From Naegleria gruberi (lineage: Eukaryota), in the NCBI GenBank assembly GCA_000004985.1, contig GG738911.1: DNA of 64,000 nt; one strand, written 5' to 3'. Within the stretch, counting starts at the first letter, position 1. Every line of letters begins with the position of its first letter. A program made the position numbers and the translations under genes. Under the pieces are notes generated by a model. It was not told the DNA's origin, did not search any database, and saw only the letters and a program-made list of their open reading frames with translations. Shown in pieces: positions 1,844 to 62,554 of this stretch.

Positions 1844-3439
1844 ATGGAATCACCTCTGAAAAAGAAGAAACTCAATCACGCTGCGGAAGAAAAAGAGAAA
1901 AATATTGATTCCGATGATGATGATCAGAATAATGATGAAAATGTAAAAATAATATTATCTAATGATGATGGTTTAATGGAAAGTATTCTATTGAAGAAGA
2001 AACTTGGAGGAAACAAAATTAGAACTCTCAATACAAAGATCACACTCTCCGAGGTTTCTATTGATTGTCTTGCAAATGATGATGTGCAGATTCGAATATG
2101 TCACCAGAAAAAGTTATTGTTTCTTAGTTGTTGCAAAAATATTCACATTTACAATTATGAGGAAGATTTGAAACTTGTTAGGAAAATTAATGTGAAATTT
2201 GATAGTTTTGAAGTCGATAGTGTTGGTGAACACTTGTTTGTAATCTCAATTAGTGGCATGTCAAAATATAGACTTGATGACATGTCAGAATTGTGGACTT
2301 TTAGAGAAAACGTGTATTGTTTTACTATTAGTGAATCCAGAAATGAAATTTTCATTCCCAATAATTTGGAAGTTAACGTTTTGGATATGAATGATGGCTC
2401 AGTCAAGAGGAAAATTCCATTTCAATTAAGCCAAGGTTATTGCGCAGATATTGTCTATGATGAAGAGGAGGAAACCATTTATCTATCAGTTAATGTTGAT
2501 AGTTTTGAAGTTTATGACTTCAAATTATTAATAGTTTCAGAAAAAACTAGAACACAAACTGAACTTGTTTGTGATCAGAGATTTAGCCATCTCTTCTTCT
2601 ATGAAAGATATCTTGTATATATCACAGTAGTGGAAGTAGTCTATCTTTTTGAAAAGAAAACTAATAATTTATTATTAACATTTAAATTGGATAAAATTAG
2701 ATATTACAATTCCTATTTTGATAGATTAACCAATACTTTAATATATCTAAATAGACAGAAAATATGTTTTAAAAAGTTACACATTGAGGAAAATATTATT
2801 GAAACTCCACTCAACAAGGAGATTTGTCTTGCACTTGAGAAATTTGGAGGCAAATTACCATCTTTCATTCCAAAAGTTCAAGTTTTAAACGAATTTGTTA
2901 TTCCAGAATGTTTACAATATCTATGGAGAGTTGAGTTTGAAAATTCAAAGTTTTGGTATATTGAGAAAGAGATTGCAAAATATGTTTCTTTTCGAGATTG
3001 TAACTTTGGATACATTACTGAAAGATGGATGGGAAAAGATGATATTCTCTTAATTGGAGATTGTCCAACAAGTTCAGAATTGGAAAATAACAAGTTTGCC
3101 CTCTGTATCTTTGTAAAGAAAGAGGAAGTTTCCAAGGTATCAAATGGCGACTTTTCAATTTATTTGCGTTACTTTGATGAATCTTCTTATGATTATATTA
3201 TTCAGAGTTTCAAATTTTCAGAATTTGTTTCAAAATTGAGTGTTGCAGAACTTGTAAAATTAGAAGACTTTTCAGAATATTTGATTCATTTTGAAAAGAN
3301 NNNNNNNNNNNNNNNNNNNNNNNNNNNNNNNNNNNNNNNNNNNNNNNNNNNNNNNNNNNNNNNNNNNNTAAGAAAGATTAACAATATACTGTTACAGATG
3401 GTTTGGCATCAAATAAAGAAAAATTGGAATGAAAATTGA
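1844..3439 (+). CDS. member of expanded paralogue family X (N-terminal K-rich NLS-like motif, beta-propeller-like middle, conserved C-terminal alpha region). 3' end interrupted by an assembly gap.
   Basis: MESPLKKKKL N-terminus and VKIIL.D..L...LLKKKLGGNKI, FEVDSVGEHL, LDMNDGS.KRKI, PLNKEICLALEKFGGKLPSFIPKVQ, IPECLQYL and FENSKFWYIEKEIAKY motifs are shared with the ORFs at 14395, 16179, 17911, 42604, 44577 and 46500. The X residues in the track are N bases; the tail after the gap is probably not real. Confidence 0.55.
   Translation: MESPLKKKKLNHAAEEKEKNIDSDDDDQNNDENVKIILSNDDGLMESILLKKKLGGNKIRTLNTKITLSEVSIDCLANDDVQIRICHQKKLLFLSCCKNIHIYNYEEDLKLVRKINVKFDSFEVDSVGEHLFVISISGMSKYRLDDMSELWTFRENVYCFTISESRNEIFIPNNLEVNVLDMNDGSVKRKIPFQLSQGYCADIVYDEEEETIYLSVNVDSFEVYDFKLLIVSEKTRTQTELVCDQRFSHLFFYERYLVYITVVEVVYLFEKKTNNLLLTFKLDKIRYYNSYFDRLTNTLIYLNRQKICFKKLHIEENIIETPLNKEICLALEKFGGKLPSFIPKVQVLNEFVIPECLQYLWRVEFENSKFWYIEKEIAKYVSFRDCNFGYITERWMGKDDILLIGDCPTSSELENNKFALCIFVKKEEVSKVSNGDFSIYLRYFDESSYDYIIQSFKFSEFVSKLSVAELVKLEDFSEYLIHFEKXXXXXXXXXXXXXXXXXXXXXXXXRKINNILLQMVWHQIKKNWNEN
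3300..3368. other. assembly gap (run of N)
   Basis: 69 consecutive n characters. Confidence 0.95.
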
Positions 3440-31877: not shown

Positions 31878-34800
31878 TTAAATACCATAGACAACGTTGG
31901 CCTTCTCAATGATTTGCATTTGAACATCTCTCACTGCCTTGAAATTAACATAATCTGGTGTGAAAACAAATCGAGAGAAGGTATCTCCCAAATTCATAAC
32001 CACCTGTCTCATCATTAATTCAAAACAATCCTTGACCATGCTATTTTCAATTCCAAGTTTTGATAGGGAATTTAAATCCAATAGCTCACAATTTGATTCG
32101 TCCAATTTCTTACATTTTTCATAGAGTTGAATGAATGCAGTTCTACTCTTTGATGGAATGTTAACTTCCATTTCTGCTCCAGTTTTGATGTACTTTTGGT
32201 AGATTCGGTCAGCAAAGAAGACTAATCCTCCAAGATTTTCACCAGATACCACATCTGTACTTGCTTTAATGTCAGAGAAGAGGAATAAATTTTCAGAGCT
32301 GAATTCCTTTTCACAAAAGTTTGCAAATAATTCATATCCTTCCTCAGATTCCAAAGTATTGTAAAGTTCTTGATTCATAATTTCATCGTTTTGCTTCTTT
32401 TGTTCTTCCTTTTTGGTTCTACGTTGTCTGAACTTGTAGACAAGAGCAACAATGAGTGCATAACCACCAAATACTAAAATATAGGAAATGACATAGAGTA
32501 CTTCAAAGATGAAGGAAATTGAATCAAATGTCAAGGCAAGTTTGAACATGGCCAAACTCTCAAATCTGTAAGACAAGCTGCTCAATCCAATAACTTGATT
32601 CAAGATGAGTAAAATGAAGGAAATAATATAAATGAACATTTCCATTCTGAAATAGAGAGGTCCATCCATTGAGGTAAACCAATGGAATGCTGTTAATAAA
32701 ATATTCTTATTGAGCTTCTTCTTTTCATTGATGTTTTCAGCATTATCAAGACTGAAAGTACTGGTAGGTTGTGAAAAGTTTACAGCTCTTCTTCTATTCT
32801 TCTTTTGATCAACTTCTTTCTTTGATGAGAGAATCATGTCAAGGATGGCGACAGCTGTAATAATCACACCAAATGTCAAAATACAAACTGTATAAGAAAC
32901 TGAAACAATGTAGGTATACTGTAATGAATCTAGAACTCCAGTTCTTCTCAAAATGACCCAAATAACCCAATAGACAACATTGACAGCAGCAAATATACCA
33001 ATCAATGAATAGAATAACACTTGTGAGGTTGCATACTTCAATGCTTTCAAAATTGTTGTACTTTGAGCTTGCGTTCTATTATCAGAGAGTTTCTTGTAGA
33101 GTAGTTTCATGAATTGGAATCTAAAAACTTGCATGACGTAACAGAAAATGGCTGTTAAATTGAGGGTGTTTACAATAATCATGACAATATTTGCAATGAT
33201 ATTGGCAGCAGCATCTCCACTTTCCCACATTTGACTATTTGCAGAATTCAATTGATCCACTAGAACAGATCTTTGTACAATATAAATCAATGTACATTCC
33301 ACAATTAATGCTATCAATCCAACATAAGGAGTAAGCAATCTAGAGCTCACAGGTTGAGACTTTCTCAAAACAATCAATCCAATCAAAATTGCACTTGCTG
33401 CAATCAAATAAATAATACCAAATGATATTTGGGCATAGTATAATGATGAAACTTGATCCTTGAGTTGAACGGTAAATGTTGTTGTCTTGGATTCAAGGAA
33501 AGTTGTAAACATGGTTGTGTGAGAACAAGCACATTCAATTGAGTTAGATGAAACTCTATGCAATGAACATCCATAACTGCTCCACATTTTGAGTTTCTCA
33601 TCCCAATACTTGCAATGATACGTACTGTTGGTAACAGTCGAATTGGAGATTATTGAGCTTGGAATAGTGGCAGCATTGAATGAAAGAATAAGAGGTGAAT
33701 CTAAATTATCCAAAACCAAGACATCTGTCTTTTTCATGAATTTGAAATCAGTAACAGAGGAGCTGAGGGTCATGTTACTAACTGAAGCATCATAATTTGT
33801 GTTCTTTGAATAAACTATCATTGTTGCTCCACAAGTCATTGAATAGGTGCCATATTTGGACATCACTGATGTCAAATTCATAGAAACCTTGCTTTCAGTA
33901 TCAGAAACGCTTTGCAAATTACTAGTTGGAGTTGGCACATTGAAACTAGAAACTGTAATATTAATGAGAGAAGATTTGTATGAACTTGTTGGTAAATCGG
34001 TTGAAGTAGAACTAACAACAGTTGGGATAGTTCCATAATAAATCAGAACAGTGACAAGACTAGCTGTCGATTTGGTTTTTTCAGAATCATATGAAGTAGA
34101 GAAGCAGTTTGAAATAACTTGAATTGTTTTGGAGATATCTGCACTGGAGAGGGATGATTTCACATAGCCATACAGAGCAAGTTCACTCAAATAAATGTCT
34201 GTCAAATTTGAAACAAATGAATCCACTTTGTTGATGACTAGACTGACGGTATCAGCTGTTAGTGTTTCATTATTGGATGTTAGTGTTTCCAAGCTTGATA
34301 AAGATGATGAAGGGTTCTTTGGATCAATTACTACATTAGAAATGAGGGCAGAGACCAATGATGACGATGCTGAACTTGTTGTAAAGGTTTGATCTACAGA
34401 GGCACCTAATAGCGACTCTCCACTCAAAGATTTTACAACTTCAATGTATTGCTCTTGAGTTCCATTAAATGGAGAGACTGTTACATTTGCTGATGCTTCA
34501 GTTTCCACATTTCCGAGGGCGTCCTTGACAAAGACAACCAGTGAGATTGTTTCTGTTGTTTCTAAAATACTTCTTGATTTGGTGGAAGAGCTTTCCGACC
34601 TAATGTAAGGTAAATAAGATGAGAAGGTAGTGTTGAGACTGTATTCAGTCAATCTAACAGACTCTGCCTTTGATTTATCATAATAACCAAATGCATATTT
34701 GAGTGGCAATAGTTCAGGTGATGTTGCAACCCATTCAGAAACCTGAATTGTAAACTTGTCATTCATTGAAATACCAGAGATTGGAGAAACGCTAACAAGA

Positions 34801-37800
34801 TTGGAAACACGTGTTGGAGGACTTGCAGAGGAGATAATTTGAATTTGAACAGAAGAGCTAATGTTTTGCTGCTTGCTATTGATAACTGTGAATGTGAACA
34901 AGACAGTCTCATTCAAATAGTTGGATGGAATGCTTGCTTGAATTGGAACTGATGGAGAAAATGATAATAGGTTAGTATTATCATATTTGGCCAAGACTGA
35001 ACCTGACCTTTTGTAAGAGAATACTCCTGCACTAACTTTCCATTCATAGGAAACCAAAGTTGAGCAATTTTTTCCACAACCTAAAAAGTATCTAATAGTA
35101 GTTGTGTTCAGAGTGATACTGTTAATAACAGTTGAAATGGTTTGATCTTGAGTACCTGAAACTAGAACAGATGGTAAACCAAAGCTTCCCAAAGTTGGCT
35201 CATTCAATTCATACTTGACTACTAATTTGAATTGTTGCAGGTTGGATTTTCTGCTTTGGAATGGTTGAATATTAGCAATGGATGCATTTGCAATGAAAGT
35301 GTAATTGCCTGCTTGAGTAACATCAGTTAATGTAGAGTTGATTAACAAACGATTGGATTCCACATAGAAAACCACATTTTGTCCATCACATTCAACACAT
35401 GACCAGGTGTAGGAAATATTTGGACTTTGGCTTAATACTTGATCTATTAATTGAATTTCCACACTGACAGTCTTGTTATCAAATTCCAAATAGACAACCT
35501 CTTCATATTTTGTAATGTTAATTTGGAATGGACTAATATTCACTGAACAATCCTTATTGGTGAATCCTTCAACACAAGAACAGTAATTTGGTGATACACA
35601 TTGTCCCTTTCCTGAGCAAACACTCGATTCGTTGAACAAGGTACCAAAGCAATTGTGCAATTCACATGTTTGGCCATAATATCCTGGTTGACATGTGCAG
35701 TTATCTGGAACAAAGCATGAACCATGACTTGAGCAAACGTTGGTATCATTAAAAAGAATTCCAAAGCAATTATGATTTGAACAATCAAATGAAAAATATC
35801 CTTCTTGGCATGAACAGTTATTTGGACTCAGACAAGTTCCATGTTTGAAACAAACATTTGAAGAATTCTTATGAACTCCAAAGCAATCATGTTCAGAACA
35901 TTCAGGTCCATAATACCCAGCTTCACAGAAGCAATTATTTGGAGATAAACATTGTCCATGAGTGGAACAAACATTAGAATTGTTAAATAAAGTGCCATAG
36001 CATTGGTGAGCTTCACACTGATATCCATAATATCCTGGTTGACATGTACAATTATTTGGAACTGGACATGAACCATGGCCACTACAAACATTCATTGTAT
36101 CATTGAATAAATGGCCATAACATTCATGGTTGGAACAATCAAATGAAAAATAACCGGTCTGACATGAACAATTATTTGGACTCTAACAAGTTCCATGCTG
36201 GAAGCACACATTCGAAGAATTCTTATGAACTCCAAAGCAATCATGTTCAGAACATTCAGCTCCATAATATCCAGCTTCACAGAAGCAATTATTTGGAGAT
36301 AAACATTGTCCATGAGTGGAACAAACACTTGAACTATTGAATAGAGTACCATAACAGTTGTGCAATTCACATGTTTGCCCATAATATCCAGCTTGACATG
36401 TGCAGATATTTGGTGAGTCACATGAACCGTGAGATGAGCAAGTACTACTATTTAAATGTTCCACTCCAAAGCAATTGTACAATCCACAATCAGATCCATA
36501 GAAAGGAACTAAACAACTACAATTATTATAGGCTGTACATGATCCTCGTCCTGAACAGACAGTTGAGGAATTCCTAGAAGCACCATAACAATCATAAATT
36601 TCACAATTCTATTTTCATCACATGTACAATTATTGAATGAATGACATTGACCGTGTGAGGAACAAATATTTGGATTGTTTGAGAGAACTCCATTACAAAT
36701 ATTAATTTCACAGAATTTGCCAGTATGTTGCTCATCACACTGACAAGTATCGAATGCTGTACAATTACCAAATCCAGTACACACATTTGTTTCATTTTTC
36801 AATATTCCACTACATTCGAATAATTCACAATCTTCTCCATAATAACCCTCTTGACAGGTACAATTTTCTGGTGAAGAACATGATCCATGTCCTGAACAAA
36901 CCATTGAAGAATTATTGATAATTCCATTACACATATAATTTTCACAATTATCTCCAAAGTATAACTCTGGACAAGTGCAATTATTCTTTGAATCACATGA
37001 TCCTACTCGAGAGCATACATTTGGTTGATCGAATCTAATTCCACCACAGTCATAGTACTGGCATTCAGATCCATATCTTCCTGCTTGACAATTACTACAT
37101 GTATTTGGTGAAGAACATGTTCCAAATCCACTGCAAACATTTGGATCACTTGGTGCAAGGCCATTACAATAATACAATTCACAAAATGTTCCTGAATATC
37201 CTGTTTGACATGAGCAAGTATTTGGACCAGTACATGTTCCACGACCATTGCAAACAGTACCAACTTGAGAATAGAGAATACTATTGCAATAGTAATTTGA
37301 ACACGTACTTCCTGAATATCCAGAATAGCATGAGCAACTATCTCGAGCATTACATGATCCATGTCCACTACAAGCACTCGATCCATATAATCCATAACAG
37401 AGATATTCATTACACTGAGAACCAGACCAAGTGTAGGTCAGTGAATTTCCAAAATACTGATTGGCTGTCCAGCAAACTTCCTTCTGGGCACCATAGAGTA
37501 CCAAATTACCATCTGATATTATCATTGATGATGTTGATGTTGATGGAATAAACAACTCACTCCATCATAACAATTCAATAGAAACTTACCTGATTGCATG
37601 ACTAATCTGAAAGGGGCTGTACCAGAGGTGCATGCAGAAGAAATTGTCTTTAAAACACCTCCCTGGTCTCGTATCTCAAGAGTGCCATCCAATGACAATA
37701 CTAAATTATACGGAGCTGTTCCTTGTCCATTAGTATCAGATGCCCAATAGGCAACCAATCCAGGTTTATAAAGCACCAAATTGCCATCCACTTGTTGTTT

Positions 37801-49292: not shown

Positions 49293-52200
49293 TTAATGTA
49301 AAGTTTCATCTTCTGGTTGAATTTCACTAGATACATCTTCACCAATGAAATTATCAGCATTTGCATTCAATTCTTCACTGGTCAAGACAGCAGATTCGTG
49401 ATGCTTTGCAGAGAGGAGGTAAGTTTGTGTCATTCCCTTGCCCTTAACTTCAATCATTCTCTCTTCGAATGAAAAGCCCAAGTCATATACTCTCTCATAG
49501 GTAGACCGAGAAACTTGAATTCTTCCTGGCTTGGAATTTGATTCCATTCGAGAGGCTGTATTGATTGAATCACCCCATAAATCATAGGCAAACTTCTTAC
49601 GTCCAATGACACCTGCTACAACTGGTCCAGTGTTGATACCAATTCTAATGTTAACTTGTTCTTCAAATCTTCCCTTTCTAAAGTTGGAATTGAAAGAACG
49701 AATCACTCCAAAGGTATCAATGGCAAACTTTAAGACTCTTTCAGGATGGTCTGATTGAGCATTCAAATCATGCAAACCACCTGCTGCAAAGTAAGCATCA
49801 CCAATTGTCTTGATCTTTTCCAAATGATAACGATCTGTCAAATCGTCAAAGCCCATAACAATTTGATTCAACATTTGAACCAATTCATTAGGAGCTAATT
49901 TTGAAGATAAACTAGTAAATCCAACCATATCTGAGAAAAAGCAAGTGATATCAGCAAATTTCTCGGCAATCAATGATGTGCCATTTTTAAGTTTTGCTGC
50001 CACTGCTCCTGGTAGAATGTTCAATAATAAAGTTTCAGAGTTTTTCTTCTCCTCAGCAAGGAGAGCATTATGCTATATTATTGTAAGGTTTTAAGATGAT
50101 TATTATAGAATAGAACATGTAAAAAAACTAATAAAAAGAAAACAAACCTTCTTTTCTGATGTAATATCCTTAATAAAGCATGTGATAATTGGTTTCTTCT
50201 CAAAGAGAGTTACAAAAATATTCATTTTGGCTGGGAATGTAGTTTGATTCTTTCTAATACATTCCACGTCAAAGGATTCACCCTTTGGATCAAATTCTGT
50301 GACAGTTTGTTTCATACTGTCTACAGCTTTTCTAATTTCATCATGATGTTGTGGACACAGGAGTGTAAACAGCAATTTACCAATTACATCTTCCTGTTGA
50401 TTTCCAAACATTCTTTGAGCTGCTGGATTGAAAATTTCAATATCACCACGATGGCTACACAAAATGACGCCATCAACAGCAGCATTTAAGATATTTCTAA
50501 CTTTGGCATCTTCTCCCCCAACATTTCTCTTCTTGACAAATAATCGAGATAGGGCACCATCGCTGAGAGAGTGATAAAGAGCATAATTTCTCAATTGTTC
50601 ATTATTTTCAAATGTTTCAATTGATAAATAATTGAATAAGGACCTTAGAGAAAAGACATTCTTCCAGTGTATCCTTAAAAAGTAGTACATAATTACACAA
50701 CCAATAAGGTTGACTGTAAATCCAACAATGGCCAAAGCTGTTATTTGAGTTACCATTGGAGTTGAGGATTTAACAGCAAAAATAAGTGAAAAGTCAATCA
50801 ACTTGAACGATGCAGTATTAGCCAAAAAAGCAACTGCATAAAATTCTTGCAAGATAACAAGCAAGTCTTGATAGTTGGAAGTTTTGGTTGTTGCAACCAA
50901 ATCTTCGATAATTCTTGAGGATTTGAGAATAGTATCCTGAACCATATAATCAATACCAAAATCACATTGTGTGTAATTGTCTGGTTTGTATCCTTTTGGA
51001 ATGACCATGGCATTGTATATTGAAGAGACAGATTCAATTGTACAATTCAAATCCCCACGAATCATGTGATCAGTTTCTGGAAACATACCGACAACTAGAG
51101 TTTCGTACGCCTTAACAGCAGAACCATACATACACAAATTCCAAAAGTATCTCAATTTGAAAACAACATAGTCAAAGTTAGTCCTTAGCACTTTGATATC
51201 AGATTCTGCGAGTATGGGTATTTCATCTAGTCCATAATTGTTCAACATATTTGTGGAAGAATGATAGAATTGTTCTGCAACATTGAAAGACAATCGTTGT
51301 AAGAATGCCATTGCATCAAAACCATCTTCCATGGTAATGTAAGATTCAAAACTGTACTTGGAATTTCCAAGAGTTTCTTTAAGGAAAATACCCAAACTGA
51401 CAGACACAGCAATCATTACAAAAATACCAATAATGATAAAGATATTCTTCGGTTTAAGAATGGAGGTCTTGGGAATATGAATAGAAACTTCATCACCAAC
51501 TTTCTTACCAAGATCATGGAAGAGTTTACCAACTTCATTCTTTGACACATGGGTGTGAATTAGTTTGATTTGCTGTTTCATTGTAGAGAGTTCAAATCTA
51601 CTATATAGCAGGTAAATTGTTGCATAAACCACATAGAACGCAAGAACAACAGATGTAAATATGGTAAAGGTGTCGTTAATTCTTAGGGCATCCTCCTTTG
51701 CAGAATCTGTAAAAACTCTGCAAAACTTTTGATAGGCATAAGTGATGGTTTCTTGATTTCTGTACATGAGCATAAACCCATAACTATTTAAACTATTCAT
51801 TAATTGGTCGTCTCCACTGTTAACCATTTGATCAGAAAGCTTTACAAGAACATTGGTAATATCAGTAATGGTCACATTTTCTGCCATGGTTTCGTTGTAA
51901 AACTTGGTTTCCATTGTTGCATCTGATTGCATTTTTGGAACATAGAAAGGATAGTAAAATTCATGGTAATGTGAGTAAACTGATGGATTGAATTTGGCAT
52001 CATAGGCCTTTTGTTGTAAATTAACCAAGATTTGTCTCAATTTTACAATGTTCTGTTTCAGCAATTTAGGGCTAAGGAACATTTCACTGGTCATTGTTTT
52101 TGGAATTGAAGAAGACGTGGAATTCATTAAATTTACAGTAGATTGATAGGCACGAACTGTTACCAACATATTTGACAATGCAGCTATTGGCGAACAAGCA

Positions 52201-54500
52201 TCAATCACGTTAATAACATTCAATGTAACGACATCTGAAAAGTTGAGGGCAATTACGATACCAGCAATTAAAAAGGCAAATCCCAACCCAGCAAATAAGA
52301 AAAAGATGGTCATTTGAATATTTCTTGGTGCTGGCACAGAAAGCGCATTTCTAAATACCATTTCTCTCTTTTGTTCGCCAGAAACAGTATTTTCAATACC
52401 GTTGAAATTGTCAAAACTATCCTCAATACTACTCATTGTTTCATAATTCATTTGTGAAAAGGATTGAGGGTTTTCTACGGTAAAATTGATAGCATTAACG
52501 GAGGCTTGAATCAACTTTCTAGAGTTATCAACTGTCTCAGCTGTTCCAACAGAATTAGAGTCTGGATGTACTCTATTCTTTCTTGCTAGTTTGGCTTTGA
52601 AAGCAGCACCTCTTTTTTGGAAGTTACCTTCATCTTCCTCAAGAGTCATTGCTTCATTAAAGTATTCACTGGCAAGGTCCTTATTAAACTTGATATTCTC
52701 CAAATAGTTAGCATACATTCTCAAGACAGTCTTGTCGTTATAGTAGAGCGATAGTAAGCTGTTGAACATGTTATCACACTCCTCAATGAGAACGGCATTA
52801 CGAGAAGCAATGCTTTCAATCTTTTCATAGTTCACTATCTCTTGCATTTGCTCCTTCCAAAAATGGCGATGGAGAGATGTAATCTCAAGCATGGATTTTT
52901 CAATCTTTGAAAAGGTAGCTTTAAGATCGATTGCATTCTTTTGTCCCCTTATTCCCTCAGTAGTAGAAGTTTCAACTTCTTTCAATCGTTGACCCAGTAA
53001 AAATCTCATGTACAAATTTGGTCGTTGCTTGATAGCCTTTTTAAGGAGAGCAAGTGCAAACGTGGACGCGTTCAATTCTTCTCCCATAAAGTAGGCAGCA
53101 ATGCATGCAGAGCTGTTCAAAATGTTTTGGTCACTGAAACCCTTCTGAGAGGAAATAGCCCTGATGAATGAAATGATAAACATCAAGTCTGCATTTTCTT
53201 CTTCATCCTTTAGCATTACTTCCACTCCCATTGTAAACCTCATGTACATGTCCATCTTGGAAAGGTTTCCATCGTCCTCAAGCTGTTGATAAATATTAAG
53301 GGCCTCTCTTTCAATGTTTTTATCTTGAATTGCTGTAATAAACTTCTTTCTCAGCTTTTTTACAATGATTCTTGAGTATATTTCTGCAATGACGCCTCCT
53401 AGAATTCCAAGAAGAACCACCAAAGCAAGAGTCATCATTGATAACCCCACACCCATAACATTATCATTGGTTGGATTAGCCAAACTTGTCACGAGACCAC
53501 CAATACTGGCACCAATACGAGCGCTTATTACCCCAGCCACTATTGAGTTCTCAAACCTTCTCATCATTGGGAAAATCTTGAATAGCAAGACTAATAATAT
53601 GAAGGAACACACCAGATGCACAATCGATCTAATGAATGCATAGTTGGCTGGTATTAAAAAGTGTACAAGCATGCCCAAAATGTTGCAAATAACTCCCAAA
53701 AGAGGAAGAATGGCACTATCTCCGATCATTGGGGTTGTGCTTAAGGGATGAGAATTTGGAAGCATGATTACAGTCAGTAACGCCTCAACTTGTAAGAGGA
53801 CAATGAATATTAAGGAGAGGGCCATCATGACAATGTTCCTCGTTTCAAAACATGTAACTGAATCAAATCTATTCAAATAGGATGTCGTAGTGGTCGTGGA
53901 GTTACTCAGCAGTGAACCAACAGCCACACTTGTAGATCCTTGTTGTTGCACCAAATTGTTGGTATTGTATCCATAGTCACAATCAACAAAGCTCGTGAAG
54001 ATGTAGGTCATTGGTGCAGAGAGAATAAGGAGAGCAAACAAGGAAATGTGAAACACATACTTCACATAGGGAATAAACTTGGAAGTGGATCTCACAGCTC
54101 TAATGGTGAGTGCAAAGGCTCCAAGAGCGAAAAGCACGAAAAACATTGAAATACTAGCAAGAGCAATGGCTCCATCATATGGAATAAGATCCAACGATAA
54201 ACTTGTTGTATAGTTCAATACTGTGAAAATCCAAGATCCCCAAACACCAAAGTTAAAGTGATGTGGACTCAGTAAGGGCATCCAAATAAAACTCCAAAAC
54301 AAGAGAATGTATAATGTAAGGGTCATGACAAATGTACGTGTTCCATGTCTTCTTGATGTGTTTTGTGCAGTGAATACAAAGGAAAGAAATTCAGTTCTAA
54401 CCTTGACTTGGAGAGAACTTGCCGACTCTGAGACAATGCTTTCAGAGTTTTGAGAACTATCCGAGCCAATAAAAGAGGCTCCAGCAATAGAACTTCTCAT
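49293..54500 (-). CDS. multi-pass membrane class III adenylyl cyclase with a PAS domain and a single C-terminal catalytic domain; two exons (50148..54500 and 49293..50072), 75-nt intron
   Basis: N-terminal about 1200 aa with many hydrophobic helices. PAS-like segment NILNAAVDGVILCSHRGDIEIFNPAAQRMFG. Cyclase domain FADITCFFSDMVGFTSLSS ... LEKIKTIGDAYFAAGG ... FAYDLWGDSINTASRMES. The Lys in EKIKTIGD and the Asp in YDLWGD are the ATP-specifying pair rather than the Glu/Cys of guanylyl cyclases. Intron is GTTTGT...ATATAG in phase 0; the track ORF tail VCFLFISFFTCSIL is intron read-through. Confidence 0.8.
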
Positions 54501-54917: not shown

Positions 54918-57900
54918 TTATTGGTATTCTTCTTCTTCGACTTCAATATATTCAACCTCTTCACCTTCAGCAAGTGTGATTGGTTCTCCATTTTCGTCAA
55001 CATACTCATACTCGACTTGTTCTTCCACTTCTTCCTGTTGTTGTTGTTGCTGTTGTGGAGTGTTAGCCGTTGTTGTCGGTTTTTGTGTTGGTGAAGATAC
55101 CTCTGGTTTAATGTCGCTCTTCTTAATACTTGCTCTCGAGTTTCTGACATTTCTGGAATTTGGTGTTGAAGATCCTGATGAACCTGTATCGGAACTTTCA
55201 GTGGTGTTTGGACTAGTAGAAGCAATTGGAGCCAGTGGTTTCTTTGGATTGAACTCGACAGACATGTAATCTTGATCCAAGAAGAAGGTCTTGATAAAAT
55301 CAATGTTAGAAGTAGATTGGGCCTTGTGTCTTTGAATAATTTCATTAATGTGGCTTCTTCTGGTTGGGAATGGCTTTCTGTATTGCTTTTGCTTATATCT
55401 CACAGCCTTGTTAGCATTAATGGCAGTCATTCTCACCAGTGGTCCCAAGTTCTTCTTATCCACAATCATTCCATCAAGGAGAGGTCCGAAAAGTGGAACT
55501 TCTGGCTTTGTATAAATTCTTACCCTAAATAAATATGTTTCCTTATGTCTTTGATATGGATAAACACAGATGTGAACAAAGTTAAATTGAGAAGGAATTG
55601 TCCATGGTTTGTAATCTCTGTCGTGCTCGCTCCAAACAATGTGGACAAAATCGTTACCGACGTGACGTTTCTTTTGGATTTGTTGCGAGTCATTGACCTT
55701 AGTTGGCATTCTTGTAACATCGTGGAAAATCACCTCAGTTGTTGCGTTTGAGTAATATGGAGCAGTATTACCAGTAGTCAAATTTTCATCTAAACCTCCC
55801 ATAAAACCACCATGAGTTCTCATATCAGCATCCCAACCAAGAGATTGAACAAATTCCTTGTAGATTCTAGAGCCTGATGTTTCATCATTTTTCAAAATAT
55901 CCTTTTGGGCTTCTTGTTGATTGGCAACATAGATGAGACCAACCTTGATGGTTTCTCTTTCAGTTAACTTGTCGAGTTGTTTAAGAGATCTGTAGAATCT
56001 ACCGTTGGCATTTACCAAACTGAAAGAAGCTCTACTGGTACCAGAGAGGAAACCAATATTATTGAGGAGGGATCTAAATGCCTTATGTACAGATTTGGTT
56101 AAATTATCATTTTCATAATCTGGCTTCTTTGGAGCATGAGCTTCGTTGAAACCAAGTGCTGGTGTATCCTNNNNNNNNNNNNNNNNNNNNNNNNNNNNNN
56201 NNNNNNNNNNNNNNNNNNNNNNNNNNNNNNNNNNNNNNNNNNNNNNNNNNNNNNNNNNNNNNNNNNNNNNNNNNNNNNNNNNNNNNNNNNNNNNNNNNNN
56301 NNNNNNNNNNNNNNNNNNNNNNNNNNNNNNNNNNNNNNNNNNNNNNNNNNNNNNNNNNNNNNNNNNNNNNNNNNNNNNNNNNNNNCGGCACATTCTGGGA
56401 AAACTTGAGTAACATAGTGTTGCAAAACTTCAAGCATATCAGTCTTATCAGTATCAATTTCAATATCATAGTGAGGATAATCGAGTTCTTCAGCACCTTC
56501 ATCTCCAGCCATTTGGCTTTCTTGTTCTTCAACCTTGATGGCTTCTTCTTCTTCATGATTTTCTTCGTCATCATCAGAATCTTCCTTAGTTTCTTGTTGG
56601 GCAGTTACTGGAACCTTGATATCTGGTGTTTCGAATGATTCCTTATCTACCTTCAAACCACCTGTTTGGTCGATATCAGCTGGCAGATCAACTGCTGCCA
56701 AATCTTGTCTGACAATTGGTTCAGCACGAGGATCATCAGCATCAAACAATTCTTCGTCACCACGATTAACAATGCTTGATACATAGAATGAGGCTCTATC
56801 TTCTTCTGGAGAACCAGGGCTATCAAAACCAGCTTTGGAAGCTCTTGGAGCATTTGAATTCTTGGCACCAGACTTGGATTCATCATCTACCAATTCATCG
56901 AATTCCAAATGGTCAATTCTAACCATGTTATCCTTCTTGAAGGTCATTGTTTCTGGAGAGTAAACTTGCTTGAATTCCCAACAATATTTACCAGTCATGT
57001 CACGTAAAATTACAACACAAGATTCAGTCTTGTTTGGATTTTCCATAATTGTCAACAAGGTATAATTGTTGAAAACAAAGTGGTGAACCTTTGGAGAAGT
57101 TACATACAAGCCATTTTCTTCTTGCAAGACATCAAATTCGGAAATTTCAGTACTCATTCTAGCAGCACCAATAGGAGTTGGGAATTGACTGAAAACGTTC
57201 AAAGCATAACACAACAAGCTTTCGGCAGCAGTAGCAATTTCCAAAGCACTGTCTTCCTTGCTGAGTGTATAATTTTCGAAAGAATACATCTTGGCTCCTC
57301 TATCAGCTGAGTCTTCAGTGGCAGCTTCAGTTACAGTATCCTTTTGTGGAGTCAACAATACACTCAATGAAACAACAGATAAACCTCTATTGATAGCACT
57401 GAAAAGCATTGAGGCAACTTCCTTGCTTTCCAAAACCTTCATTGGAATGTATTGCAAAATTTCAACAATGGAATAGAACAAGTGTTTGAAAATGCTCCAT
57501 TGTGCCAAGGCAGAATCAGAATCCTTCAACTGAGAGGACAAGGCAGTACAGATGGTCAACAAGAATGTACGAATGGTTGGAACACCTAACTTGGTGAATA
57601 AACCTAAATGAGCCAATGTAACTACAGCATCGTGAGCAGCACAGGCAACATCAGCATTCTTGTCAACAAAGAACTTGATGAACATTTCAACAATTTGTCT
57701 GGATGGATTAGATCTTCCGTTAACTCCTTCAAGTTGGAGCTCATTGTGGAGAATAGCATAGAGACCCCAAATACACTTGATTTGAACATCAACAAATCTG
57801 TCATCTTGAACACAAGATTGAAGTGTTTGAACAATACGACCTCTGAGTTTGGTGAAGGTGGTTACAGTTTCTGGGTTCAAATTTTCCAACTTGGCTTGTT

Positions 57901-60216
57901 TGAGTTTCAAAACTGTTTCAACGTGAGGAAGAGGACGATCTCCATAGAAGTAGCAAATAGGAATGAGGGAGGTAAGACCTTGTACAGCAGCAATACGCAA
58001 TTCTTGAGTTTCTGGTCCAATTGTAGCACTTGATTCCTTAAGAACCTTTTGACATGCTTGAACAAAGTATGGAACAAGAATATTCAAACCCATGTGACCC
58101 ATACTGAAAATGTTCCAGCCGTGTTTGATGATTGCTTCGATAGTACGATCAGTGGCTGTATATTCTGGAACCAATCCCTTGAAAAGAGCTCTATAACAAT
58201 TGGCAAGGTATTGAACATTCAAAGGTTGACTGAATTGTGTGACCAAGATTTGACACATCATGGTATAAGCAATAACACGTCCAGATTCGAATTGATCATC
58301 AGTTCTATCACAAGCTTCAATAATCCATTCCAAAAGGATGGCAAATAACTTGTTACCTTCTGGTGAGTGAAGGAATGTAACACTGTTGGTAGAACCTCTG
58401 ACAGCCTTGACTTCAGTAATTTCAATATCCAAGAAAAGATCCAAAACTTCCTTCAAAACAACCATTTTCTTTGCATGCAAGGCTCCGTTAGTGAGTTGTG
58501 TATTCTCATTACCGAACATGTTCAAAAACTTGTGGAAAAGATGCAAAACAGTATCAATAGAAATACTCTTTGACATGTAAGTATCCATTCCTTGGAAAAT
58601 GTGTTGTTTCTTTTCAGTTTTGGCCTTCTTCTTTACAACTGTTACAGTATACATATCAGTTGTATATTCAATAAAACCAACTCTCATTCTATCTGTTGGC
58701 ATTTCAAAGATTTGTTCACAAACAATACGAGCAAGATTGAGAACAGTAGCACGCCATAAACCAAAAGCAGATGGCATGTGAGCATAACTTTGCATTAATT
58801 CGTATAATTCTTCCCACAATTTAGGATATTGATCTGTTGGGTGAGACTTGATCCATATTATGTACAAATTTCTAAAGCAGGTCTTTTCTAAAATATCGCT
58901 ATACATGACGTCGTAGTTATCACCTCCTTTAGTCTTTCTATCAACCACAGTAGAACAGATACGTTTGTGAGCAGAAAGTAAATCACTCCATGTTTCAAAG
59001 TCAATCTTGTCAGAAATTTGTGTAAAGAACATGAACATTTCCAAAACTTCATAACTCATAGTGATATGCAAATCAATATATTGTTCATCTCCTTTCATGT
59101 AGAAAATTTGACTCAAATTATCAATGAAAATACGGAAGTAGAGATTTCTGTTTCTTTCCATAATTTCAGGCCAGTTGTATAAAAAGTAATCTCTACAAAT
59201 CCATGAACGATAAGTCTTCATCATCTTGGCTAACTGTTCGTAGTGTTGTGGTGGGAGGAGGAAACTTTGTCTGAAAATCATCAAGAAGAGATAAATATCT
59301 TTATCACTTTGATAAAGAATAGTAGAATTCTTTGGACTTTCCAAGCCAGACATGATAACATCAAGAATTAACAAGTGAATTCTTGTTGGAGCTTTTTCTG
59401 TGAAACCCATATCGTCCATTTTGTTTAAAAGATCTAAACTCTTACATTCATTAGGATAAAAGATTGGTGCAAGACGAAGTTTAAAGAATTTCCACCAATA
59501 ATCAAAGTGATCAGATTCCTTCATAAATGTGAAAAAGAATGTGAAAAGTTGATAATCTTCTTCAACTGTCAAATCATTTGTAGATGTGGCAACTGCCAAC
59601 TTTTCATCAGTATTCAAGGCACGTTGACCAAATGATGGGAGCTTGATATCACGTGAATCCTCTGTCAATGGTTTAAATTTAAGAGCATTCATAATCATAT
59701 CAAGAACTTGATTATCAACATTGTCTTGCATAATATCTACAAATCTTACAATCAATTCGAACCCCTTGAAACGAATTTGGAAGATGTTTTGCTCATCCAA
59801 TAACAGTTCAAGAGTGTGAATGATGGAACGTTGTTGCCACTTTTTTTGAATGATGTTCGAAGAGTGTGCAAACAAGTTGAGTAAAATATCAGTAAGTCCT
59901 AAAACATCACTTGTTGGAATAGTTTTAGCTATTAGAAATAGGTTATTATTAGTAAAACATGAAAAAACATTAATAACAACTCACATTTCTTCTTTGCTTC
60001 TGAATTCATAGAATTCAGAGTATCCAAAAAGATGTTATAAACAATAGAATAATTCTTTTGATAGAACGCCCGTAACTCTGTATCTGCACCATCCTTGTTA
60101 AATGATGCAAGACATTTGTATCTTTTCAAAGGTTGTTCAGTATCGTCGAGAATTTTCTTCTCATCCTTTGGATTTAAAGTTCCATTGGAACCTATTCTAA
60201 ATAAAGACATTGACAT
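54918..60216 (-). CDS. tsc2: tuberin (TSC2) homologue: large N-terminal region plus C-terminal Rap/Rheb-GAP domain and acidic/poly-Q tail. Exon 1 59995..60216, 56-nt intron, exon 2 from 59938; interrupted by the N-gap 56171..56385.
   Basis: The GAP domain (KKRHVGNDFVHIVWSEHDRDYKPWTIPSQFNFVHICVYP, then ...GPLVRMTAINANKAV.......P...RRSHINEIIQRHK) aligns motif-for-motif with human tuberin ([39 protein letters not shown] ... VARQMALHANMA ... RLRHIKRLRQR). The upstream block VGLIYVANQQ matches VLYVGEGQ. The 5' intron is GTGAGT..TAATAG in phase 1 and joins MSMSLF... to the main ORF in frame. Confidence 0.8.
56171..56385. other. assembly gap (run of N) inside the TSC2 gene
   Basis: 215 consecutive n characters. 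Confidence 0.95.
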
Positions 60217-61065: not shown

Positions 61066-62554
61066 ATGTCAACAACAGAAAGAAAGATTGTCGATTTGGG
61101 TATGTAAGGAAGAAGTAACATGATCACTGATATTAAAAACATTTGTGCGGAAATGATGAATATGCTATTCAATGCAAATTTGATTTATAAAATGTATAGT
61201 AATTATTGGAGTTGGTCAAAGAGGGCAAAACTATTCAAGATATGCAAGGGAATTTCCAGATCATTGCCGAGTTGTGGCCATTGCTGAGCCTAGAAAAGCT
61301 GTAAGAGCCAAAATGATCAAGTTGTACAATTTATCGGAGGATGTTTGTTTTACTGATTGGCAAACATTGTATCACACTTTGAAAAAGAATAATAATAAGG
61401 CTACATTCTTGGATGAGAGCCATGAACGTGCTGTAGTGATTGCTACACAGGATCAGTATCACGTTGAGCCAGCAATTGCCTTTGCTCACTTAAAGTTTAA
61501 CATTTTACTTGAAAAACCAATGGCTGTAAATGAGGAAGATTGTAAAAGAATTACCAAAGCTGTGGAGGAGAATAATGTCAAACTTGCTGTTTGCCATGTA
61601 CTGAGATATTCCATCTATACTCAAAAATTGAAGGAACTTCTCAAGAGTGGACTCATTGGAAATATTATCAATATTCAACATTTGGAACCTGTTGGTTACT
61701 TCCACTATGCACATTCATATGTGAGAGGAAAGTGGGCAAATGAAAACACTTCCTCACCAATGCTTCTTGCCAAATCTTGTCACGACATTGATTGGATTAG
61801 TTATGTCATGCAACCAGCAAAGGTTGTGAATGTATCATCATTTGGATCATTGATTCATTGCAGAAAAGAGAATAAGCCAGAGGGAGCAGCCAGTAGATGT
61901 TTGGATTGCCCATCTTCTATTGAGGAAAATTGCTGTTACTCAGCCAAGAAAATTTACTTGGATCAAGTCAAGATGGGAGAAACTGGATGGCCTGTTTCAG
62001 TTATAGTAGAAAGTGGTGAAGAGCCAACTGTTGAAAATGTTATTAATTCTTTAAAGACTAATAATTACGGTAGATGTGTCTATGATTCAGATAATAATGT
62101 TGTTGATAATCAAGTTGTTTCTCTTCAATTCGATAATGGTGCCACTTGCACCTTTACAATGATTGCCTACTCGAAGGAAATTTGCGAAAGAAAGAGTAGA
62201 ATTTATGGAACTAAGGGAGAAATTGAAGTTATTGGAAATGAAATCAAACACTTTGATTTTTTAACAGGATCCTACAAGACTATCGATTTGAATCAAGAAC
62301 TTCCAAATACTTCATTGAGAGGACATGGTTTTGCTGACTTTTACTTGATGAATCACTTTATTGACGCTGTTGGATTGAATGATTCTGCCAAACTTGTTTC
62401 CAATGCAAGAGAAACTCTCAATTCTCACCTTTTAGTTTTTGAAGCAGAAAAAGCCAGACATTCCAACACTGTTTTGAAATTCAATCACAATGTTGACTTG
62501 ACCAATGTAGTTGCTACTCCAATCCAAGATAACACCAAGTGTGAATTAATATAA
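61066..62554 (+). CDS. Gfo/Idh/MocA-family NAD(P)-dependent oxidoreductase; two exons (61066..61099, 61200..62554)
   Basis: Exon 1 MSTTERKIVDLG plus exon 2 VIIGVGQRGQNYSRYAREFPDHCRVVAIAEP gives the N-terminal Rossmann GxGxxG of the family. The EKP motif (LLEKPMAVNEED) and the downstream dimerisation region are present. The intron is 100 nt, GTATGT..TATAG, phase 1. The track ORF starts mid-exon at a GTG. Confidence 0.8.

Follow-up and report, generated by a model that had tools for sequence, protein, structure and literature searches.

A probable receptor-type adenylate cyclase of Naegleria gruberi belongs to a class III cyclase family expanded across Heterolobosea

Introduction

Does a single gene join a very large membrane-spanning N-terminus to a PAS domain and one cyclase domain, and if so, what would such a protein sense? 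The question is raised by the locus at positions 49293-54500 (minus strand) of a 64,000-nucleotide stretch of Naegleria gruberi DNA (contig GG738911.1 of assembly GCA_000004985.1), which was analysed as a whole and is called here the window. A preliminary description, made from the DNA letters alone, had seen at this place an unusual adenylyl cyclase and had looked to the dictyostelids for comparison. We find that the locus is one gene, that it probably encodes a receptor-type class III adenylate cyclase of 1710 aa working through a dimeric receptor-cyclase mechanism, and that it is a member of a family expanded throughout Heterolobosea.

Free-living amoebae possess very large cyclase repertoires. 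The N. gruberi genome was reportedly published in 2010. The gene described here is a clean and complete example of a sub-family conserved from Pharyngomonas to Naegleria, the pathogen N. fowleri included, and knowing the signals perceived by its ectodomains and its PAS domain would show how heterolobosean amoebae couple environmental cues to cyclic AMP (cAMP). Data on sensing might also assign a function to the TmcB-type module that the protein shares with Dictyostelium. Taken as a single locus, the gene tells little beyond the automated annotation of its paralogues.

Results

The gene is composed of two exons separated by one 75-nt GT-AG intron, with a coding sequence of 5133 nt (Table 1). 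Exon 1 is contained in an open reading frame (ORF) of 1465 aa (50103..54500) with its ATG at 54500, and its end is defined both by the GT at 50147/50146 and by the gap-free alignment to the paralogues. Removal of the intron brings this exon into frame with the ORF of the cyclase (49293..50024). The resulting junction (...KDITSEKK/HNALLAEEKKNSETLLLNILPG) produces no gap in the alignment to ten full-length relatives, so that the gene model is well supported even without a cDNA. Because one uninterrupted exon encodes the membrane part together with the soluble insert and the PAS domain, the idea that the N-terminus might belong to a separate gene, which the preliminary description had named as one way to refute it, does not hold. 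Moreover, the RalGAP-like gene lying upstream terminates at a stop codon of its own (54918), 417 nt ahead of the ATG of the cyclase.

The identity of the enzyme was read from its catalytic domain. Guanylate_cyc (PF00211) matched the protein once, at aa 1487-1672 (E 8.9e-54, 182.3 bits for a cut-off of 21.9), and one cyclase domain and one PAS domain are all that the 64-kb window contains. The metal-binding Asp and the transition-state Asn and Arg (Table 1) align to the C1/C2 motifs of AC9 and AC8, and the catalytic residues are kept in the nine Naegleria relatives that have a complete catalytic domain in the alignment. The Lys/Asp pair had already been pointed out in the preliminary description; the two specificity positions indeed carry Lys1539 and Asp1615, and not the Glu and Cys that would speak against an adenylate cyclase. 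Among solved structures, the domain comes closest to the C2 domains of AC9, AC8 and AC5 (8e-61 for C2) and to the homodimeric mycobacterial Cya/Rv1625c type (5o5k, 2.7e-49). Ahead of the domain lies the cyclase transducer element (CTE) segment ETLLLNILPGAVAAKLK, which aligns to dwLLrNIiPyhVAeqLK of AC9 and to its counterpart in AC8, both of which precede the C2 domains; the CTE is 90% identical to that of the N. gruberi paralogue. Since a single domain holds both metal Asp, the adenine Lys/Asp and the transition-state Asn/Arg, the protein is best read as a dimeric cyclase specific for ATP. We infer in a straightforward manner that the protein would use ATP and would need to dimerise, the latter as the preliminary description had proposed.

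The protein reads, from its N-terminus, as eight transmembrane (TM) helices, a cytosolic helical region of ~350 aa that includes TPR_TmcB, two modules made of a TM helix, a helical ectodomain and a second TM helix, then the PAS domain, the CTE and one class III domain. Hydropathy places eight TM helices in aa 58-371, a soluble stretch at 372-731, and four further helices at 732-750, 947-965, 1020-1038 and 1253-1271. An AlphaFold2 model of aa 50-1249 (predicted local distance difference test score, pLDDT, 71.5) agrees with this layout: eight TM helices lie between aa 54 and ~375, followed by a cytosolic all-helical region, a disordered linker, and the last four TM helices, which bracket two large loops. 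These data bear out the large polytopic N-terminus, here ~1270 aa, with two TM clusters and a soluble insert of ~350 aa that had been described previously, as well as the statement that the architecture is neither the two-domain type with twice six TM helices nor the single-TM type of ACG, as there is one catalytic domain and twelve TM helices arranged as 8+4. What had been missed is this arrangement with its two large ectodomains, the intron, and the likeness of the soluble region to a TPR of the TmcB type.

The orientation in the membrane was evaluated from three kinds of markers. Near the membrane, 27 Lys and Arg fall on loops assigned to the inside versus 8 on those assigned to the outside. 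The loops predicted to lie outside contain conserved cysteines (C174/C217, C769/C927 and C1153). Nine N-glycosylation sequons fall in such loops, where the two large ectodomains account for six, versus seven in predicted inside segments; the position of the sequons therefore adds little to the topology. A twelve-helix (8+4) topology with both termini inside fits the positive-inside count and the Cys pairs.

The 8-TM cluster contains the conserved, predicted extracellular pair C174/C217 and a conserved cytosolic motif, P-x-x-R-R-x-E-N, at aa 311-318. Together with the TPR region it displays four invariant cytosolic motifs (PxxRRxEN, LHRHFWKE, NDKTVLR and NRVxP), and the TPR_TmcB core matches its family well above threshold (Table 1). 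The last of these motifs, N-R/K/Q-V-x-P, occupies aa 641-646 (52563-52580, minus strand; KNRVHP here). Its Asn is present in 12/12 aligned sequences, and its V-x-P is kept in all members but the Pharyngomonas protein P0016. It sits in the poorly conserved and predicted disordered linker between the TPR region and TM9, and is a candidate short linear motif.

In a second AlphaFold2 model, covering aa 720-1330 (pLDDT 82.5, predicted template-modelling score 0.76), the two TM-helical bundle-TM modules are seen. Every TM helix runs on into a long helix of the ectodomain, and TM12 continues as a helix into the cytosolic linker ahead of the PAS domain. Four of the sequons of ectodomain 1 are internal to the loop, and two others lie at most five residues from a TM helix. 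Pfam matched no family on the TM9-TM12 segment (aa 720-1330) of ten members. An origin of the two modules by internal duplication is not supported, as they have no detectable sequence similarity to each other (hhalign probability 2.6%). Identity among paralogues is 15-23% in the ectodomains, 30-39% in the 8-TM and TPR parts and 73-75% in the cyclase domain. Such divergence is the pattern expected if the ectodomains had diversified for different ligands, and suggests that they have a sensing role.

As indicated in the preliminary description, a PAS domain precedes the cyclase. Searched as a single sequence, it found the haem domains of FixL as its seven best solved matches (~7e-9). With the family profile (A3), haem O2 sensors take all of the first 13 places among the solved matches (FixL, 3e-14; DosP/EcDOS, 4e-11 to 6e-9), ahead of any non-haem PAS. 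The proximal haem ligand is nevertheless missing at the aligned column: where FixL has His200 (BjFixL, F-alpha), the members of the family have Ile, Val or Leu and this protein has Ile1389, although the single-sequence alignment instead puts an Arg there. FixL Arg220 aligns with a Phe. Two consecutive histidines, His1385 and His1386, lie in the same helix, three to four residues or one helical turn before the His200 column, and only in this cyclase and its paralogue P0001; the pair was not found in the N. fowleri or N. lovaniensis co-orthologues or in the other aligned paralogues. Ligation of haem in the manner of FixL is unsupported for the family as a whole, and has a low probability for this gene, because the His200 column and Arg220 are unmatched and the His-His pair is limited to two proteins.

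The ten full-length relatives are collinear with the cyclase from end to end, with the same domain order, and all have PF25474 and PF00211; PF13426 and PF00989 are both present in eight, and PF13426 only in P0007 and P0009. The nearest match, P0001, also from N. gruberi, covers 100% of the protein at about 56-57% identity, while the nine others show 28-49% identity over 87-97%. P0001 was considered as an orthologue from another species and rejected: it is a paralogue on another scaffold of the same genome, with an identity matrix that agrees with in-paralogy. The proteins P0002 of N. fowleri and P0003 of N. lovaniensis (48-49% identity) look like co-orthologues of the pair formed by the cyclase and P0001. 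The database model of P0003 (C9374_007412, 2222 aa) has an extra N-terminus of ~600 aa with PF03547, a membrane transport family, and probably represents two adjacent genes merged by annotation. In a distant member of the family, the Pharyngomonas kirbyi transcript GECH01006598 (P0016), Asp and Glu replace the transition-state Asn and Arg, and its product may be a non-catalytic or heterodimer-only cyclase.

To follow the membrane module, an exhaustive profile search was carried out with alignment A1 (aa 50-1249). It returned 381 proteins at E<1e-3, of which 105 reach E<1e-30, and at least 45 of the 146 best matches have PAS and cyclase domains in the same order. The four short matches that were checked (P0094, P0098, P0163, P0165) are probably fragments of gene models, since they share 90% clusters with cyclases of ~1700 aa. 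Organism names were looked up by cluster for 20 of the best 150 matches. A named member was present for 12 of the 20, and every one is heterolobosean (Naegleria gruberi, N. fowleri, N. lovaniensis, Willaertia magna, Acrasis kona and Pharyngomonas kirbyi). By word-indexed searching, the N-terminal 1310 aa and alignment A1 each gave Naegleria matches only. Because relatives recur across heterolobosean genera, the architecture is old within Heterolobosea and multi-copy per genome, in agreement with the ~80 cyclases of diverse TM topologies and PAS motifs described in N. fowleri (PMC9283941) and the at least 81 cyclases across the genus Naegleria (PMC9928731). These data show that the cyclase is a typical member of a lineage-specific receptor-cyclase family that has been catalogued computationally and is uncharacterised. 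The word "unusual" does not suit a gene whose architecture is found in many heterolobosean paralogues. The dictyostelid frame had to be abandoned as well: the best homologues are from Naegleria, and four neighbouring ORFs are exact matches to the N. gruberi predicted proteins NAEGRDRAFT_74129, 74131, 74133 and 74137 of a 261-kb scaffold. Unlike these neighbours, the cyclase had no identical or near-identical entry among the protein-search matches; the reference annotation may lack the gene or contain a wrong model of it, or its record may lie outside the sequence set searched.

Table 1. Features of the cyclase gene and its product (positions are those of the window)
Feature	Position	Strand	Residues and remarks
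Coding exon 1	50148..54500	minus	Codons 1-1451; N-terminal tail, 12 predicted TM helices, cytosolic helical/TPR region, both ectodomains, PAS
Intron	50073..50147	minus	75 nt, GT...AG, phase 0, AT-rich
Coding exon 2	49293..50072	minus	Codons 1452-1710 and TAA stop (49293-49295); coiled coil/CTE, cyclase domain, acidic C-terminal tail
N-terminal 8-TM cluster	53388..54329	minus	aa 58-371; from hydropathy, AlphaFold2 helices, positive-inside count, Cys columns and motif alignment
Cytosolic all-helical region	52581..53375	minus	aa 376-640; AlphaFold2 helices; weak Foldseek matches are TPR proteins
TPR_TmcB core (PF25474)	52629-52934	minus	aa 523-624; E 1e-15, 58.2 bits for a cut-off of 27
TM9-ectodomain 1-TM10	51606..52307	minus	Predicted helical bundle of ~196 aa with a beta-hairpin; Cys769/Cys927
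TM11-ectodomain 2-TM12	50688..51443	minus	Predicted helical bundle of ~214 aa; conserved Cys1153 in an NCT sequon
Cytosolic PAS domain	50160..50504	minus	aa 1333-1447; PAS_9 at 1343-1447 (E 5.8e-18), PAS (1e-11)
His1385/His1386	50343-50348	minus	Within PAS
CTE/coiled-coil linker	49986..50042	minus	aa 1462-1480, NSETLLLNILPGAVAAKLK
Class III (IIIa-like) nucleotidyl cyclase catalytic domain	49410..49967	minus	aa 1487-1672, Pfam PF00211
Metal-binding residues			D1499 (FFSDMVGFT), D1543 (KTIGDAYF)
Adenine-recognition residues			K1539 (EKIKTIGD, aligns with EKIKTIG of AC C2), D1615 (YDLWGD, aligns with YDIWGD)
Transition-state residues			N1622, R1626 (SINTASRME)
Additional conserved catalytic-domain residues			R1594, K1661

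Discussion

We propose that the protein works as a dimeric receptor cyclase. Each chain would begin in the cytosol, cross the membrane eight times, expose its TmcB-type TPR region to the cytosol and then form the two TM-ectodomain-TM modules, TM12 bringing it back to the cytosol, where the helical linker, the PAS domain, the coiled-coil CTE and the catalytic domain would follow. Two chains would associate head-to-tail via their catalytic domains, and because each chain carries the full residue set, the dimer would form two equivalent ATP sites producing cAMP. Signal input most likely takes place at the ectodomains, which diverge fast and are predicted to be disulfide-bonded and glycosylatable, and the PAS domain may be a second sensor or a relay. 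Signals received by the ectodomains, and possibly by the PAS domain, would be transmitted as conformational changes through TM12, the linker, the PAS dimer and the coiled coil of the CTE. By determining the register of the two catalytic domains, they would control the output of cAMP. The data establish the gene model, the order of the domains, the set of catalytic residues and the place in the family; the topology, the dimer, the substrate, the direction of signalling and the binding of ligands by the ectodomains are inferred from them.

The protein was compared with known systems. The closest proteins are the Naegleria TmcB-TPR/PAS/cyclase paralogues (P0001; P0002, which is FDP41_012829; and C9374_007412), a database grouping and not a studied system. 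They are alike in length class (1600-1800 aa), in Pfam set and in domain order, with identical catalytic residues and CTE, but differ in the ectodomains (15-52% identity) and in the His-His pair of the PAS domain, shared with P0001 only. Mycobacterial Cya/Rv1625c (5o5k, 7yz9, 7yzi) also places a single class IIIa domain after a helical transducer, with a polytopic anchor in the membrane. It forms a homodimer whose two sites are symmetric, whereas a dimer is only predicted for the Naegleria protein; it has six TM helices and is devoid of PAS domain, TPR region and large ectodomains, whereas the Naegleria cyclase would have twelve helices (8+4) and ~800 aa of sensor and helical domains outside the membrane. 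With mammalian AC9, AC8 and AC5 and Dictyostelium ACA the likeness resides in the catalytic domain and the CTE, especially with C2, and in the total of twelve TM helices. However, these transmembrane adenylate cyclases (tmACs) are pseudo-heterodimers with C1 and C2 in one chain and 6+6 helices. ACG and the trypanosome receptor cyclases have one (or two) TM helices and one N-terminal extracellular sensor, in contrast to the twelve helices predicted here, and Pfam matched neither a CHASE nor a periplasmic-binding-protein domain in the Naegleria protein.

Outside Heterolobosea, the only link of the membrane module is with Dictyostelium TmcB and TmcC ("tiny macrocysts", PF25474), through the above-threshold TPR_TmcB domain at aa 523-624. 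We know of no TmcB protein that carries a cyclase domain, and our literature search on TmcB and "tiny macrocysts" returned nothing relevant. For the PAS domain, the haem PAS of FixL and DosP are the closest solved structures by sequence and are of similar length. In FixL, as here, a helical linker leads from the PAS domain to the output domain, but the output of FixL and DosP is a kinase or a phosphodiesterase instead of a cyclase, and their haem ligation is not matched. As for the ectodomains, the bacterial TM-bundle-TM sensors (Tar/Tsr, PcaY, NarQ, TorS, and the NIT domain of NasR) share 3-10% sequence identity with them, and they differ from the Naegleria cyclase, which has two different, mutually dissimilar modules in tandem in one chain. 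Homology is not demonstrated, because designed bundles, talin and catenin score equally.

Several points weigh against the receptor-cyclase mechanism proposed above. It leaves the function of the 8-TM cluster and of the TPR region unexplained. Foldseek searches of the PDB with the 1200-aa model gave nothing at E<0.07, and the fold matches of the ectodomains are non-specific, the designed bundles, talin and catenin scoring like the chemoreceptor, NIT and TorS sensors. No experimental or biochemical work on any member of the family was found in the literature. Finally, many paralogues are encoded in the same genome and may meet in the same cell, so that heterodimers may form.

The alternative that deserves most attention, although we consider it unlikely, concerns the function of the membrane part. 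Rather than a ligand receptor, the N-terminal TmcB-like module could be a transporter or channel, a sensor of lipids or a scaffold; the eight TM helices and the TPR region would then recruit partners, and the cyclase would report the state of the membrane or the binding of a partner. Cyclases fused to channels or ATPases exist in ciliates and apicomplexans, and lipid sensing has been proposed for the membrane domains of tmACs. The stronger conservation of the 8-TM and TPR parts relative to the ectodomains, their invariant cytosolic motifs, the tendency of TPR folds to bind proteins and the lack of any Pfam or fold match that would put the ectodomains in a receptor family all argue for a module of this kind. 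However, a TM-bundle-TM unit that feeds straight into a linker, a PAS domain and a CTE is the standard layout of a sensor protein, and a scaffold is compatible with a receptor: the two are not mutually exclusive. It is quite unlikely that the main input is intracellular, with a PAS domain that binds haem as in FixL or DosP, a cyclase regulated by O2 or redox, and a membrane part that only anchors or localises it. The haem sensors found as closest solved matches, both with the single sequence and with the profile, and the position of H1385/H1386 near the His200 column in the cyclase and its N. gruberi paralogue would agree with haem binding, but the column itself contains Ile, Val or Leu, Arg220 is replaced by Phe, and the co-orthologues and the other paralogues are deprived of the His-His pair. 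Such a regulation would also leave unexplained the conserved Cys pairs and the fast divergence of the ectodomains.

Other doubts concern the catalytic unit and the gene itself. We regard as very unlikely that the cyclase works mainly as a heterodimer with a paralogue. Near-identical CTE and catalytic domains do occur in the same-genome paralogues P0001, P0010, P0242 and P0162, and the degenerate transition-state residues of Pharyngomonas P0016 (GETVDIAEEME) are typical of a non-catalytic partner; nevertheless, every catalytic residue is present here, so that no complementing partner is needed, and the closest solved single-domain relatives are homodimers. PF00211 spans adenylate and guanylate cyclases, and the database names of the relatives are generic. 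A guanylate cyclase, or a pseudo-cyclase devoid of catalytic activity, is nevertheless highly improbable given Lys1539 and Asp1615 in place of Glu and Cys/Ser and the intact metal Asp and Asn/Arg, all of which are kept in the nine Naegleria relatives whose catalytic domain is complete. Lastly, an intron does separate the two ORFs, as might be seen if a long N-terminus and a cyclase from two genes had been joined in error. This is extremely improbable: the membrane region and the PAS domain belong to the same uninterrupted exon, the intron is in phase 0 with GT-AG ends and a junction free of gaps against the relatives, the upstream gene ends at its own stop codon, and the end-to-end architecture recurs in six heterolobosean species of four genera.

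Within the receptor-cyclase mechanism that we favor, a more specific proposal can be put forward, though only tentatively. The TmcB-like module might be an unrecognised type of eukaryotic receptor, in which the two non-identical TM-bundle-TM ectodomains would form a chemoreceptor-like pseudo-dimer on a platform made of the eight TM helices and the TPR region. If the receptor-type reading is true, the family would represent the main G-protein-independent chemosensory repertoire of the amoeba, converting prey or environmental chemicals directly into cAMP. As a variant of the same proposal, the cyclase and its in-paralogue may have gained a His-ligated cofactor in their FixL-like PAS domain, which would integrate O2 or redox with the external signal.

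Other genes of the window

The RalGAP-like gene upstream of the cyclase (54918-59875, minus strand) has RALGAPB_N and Rap_GAP domains and appears as two ORFs, split by an assembly gap of 215 nt (N-run 56171-56385); a second assembly gap (N-run 3300-3368) is located near the start of the window. An ORF on the plus strand (61274-62554) encodes GFO/IDH/MocA oxidoreductase domains and has no relation to the cyclase. On the minus strand, at 31878-36095, a protein of 1405 aa, which is the exact match to NAEGRDRAFT_74131, has EGF repeats at its N-terminus, an RGS domain at its C-terminus and seven predicted TM helices (aa 892-1217), and belongs to the "7TM-RGS" receptor class described for N. fowleri (PMC9283941).

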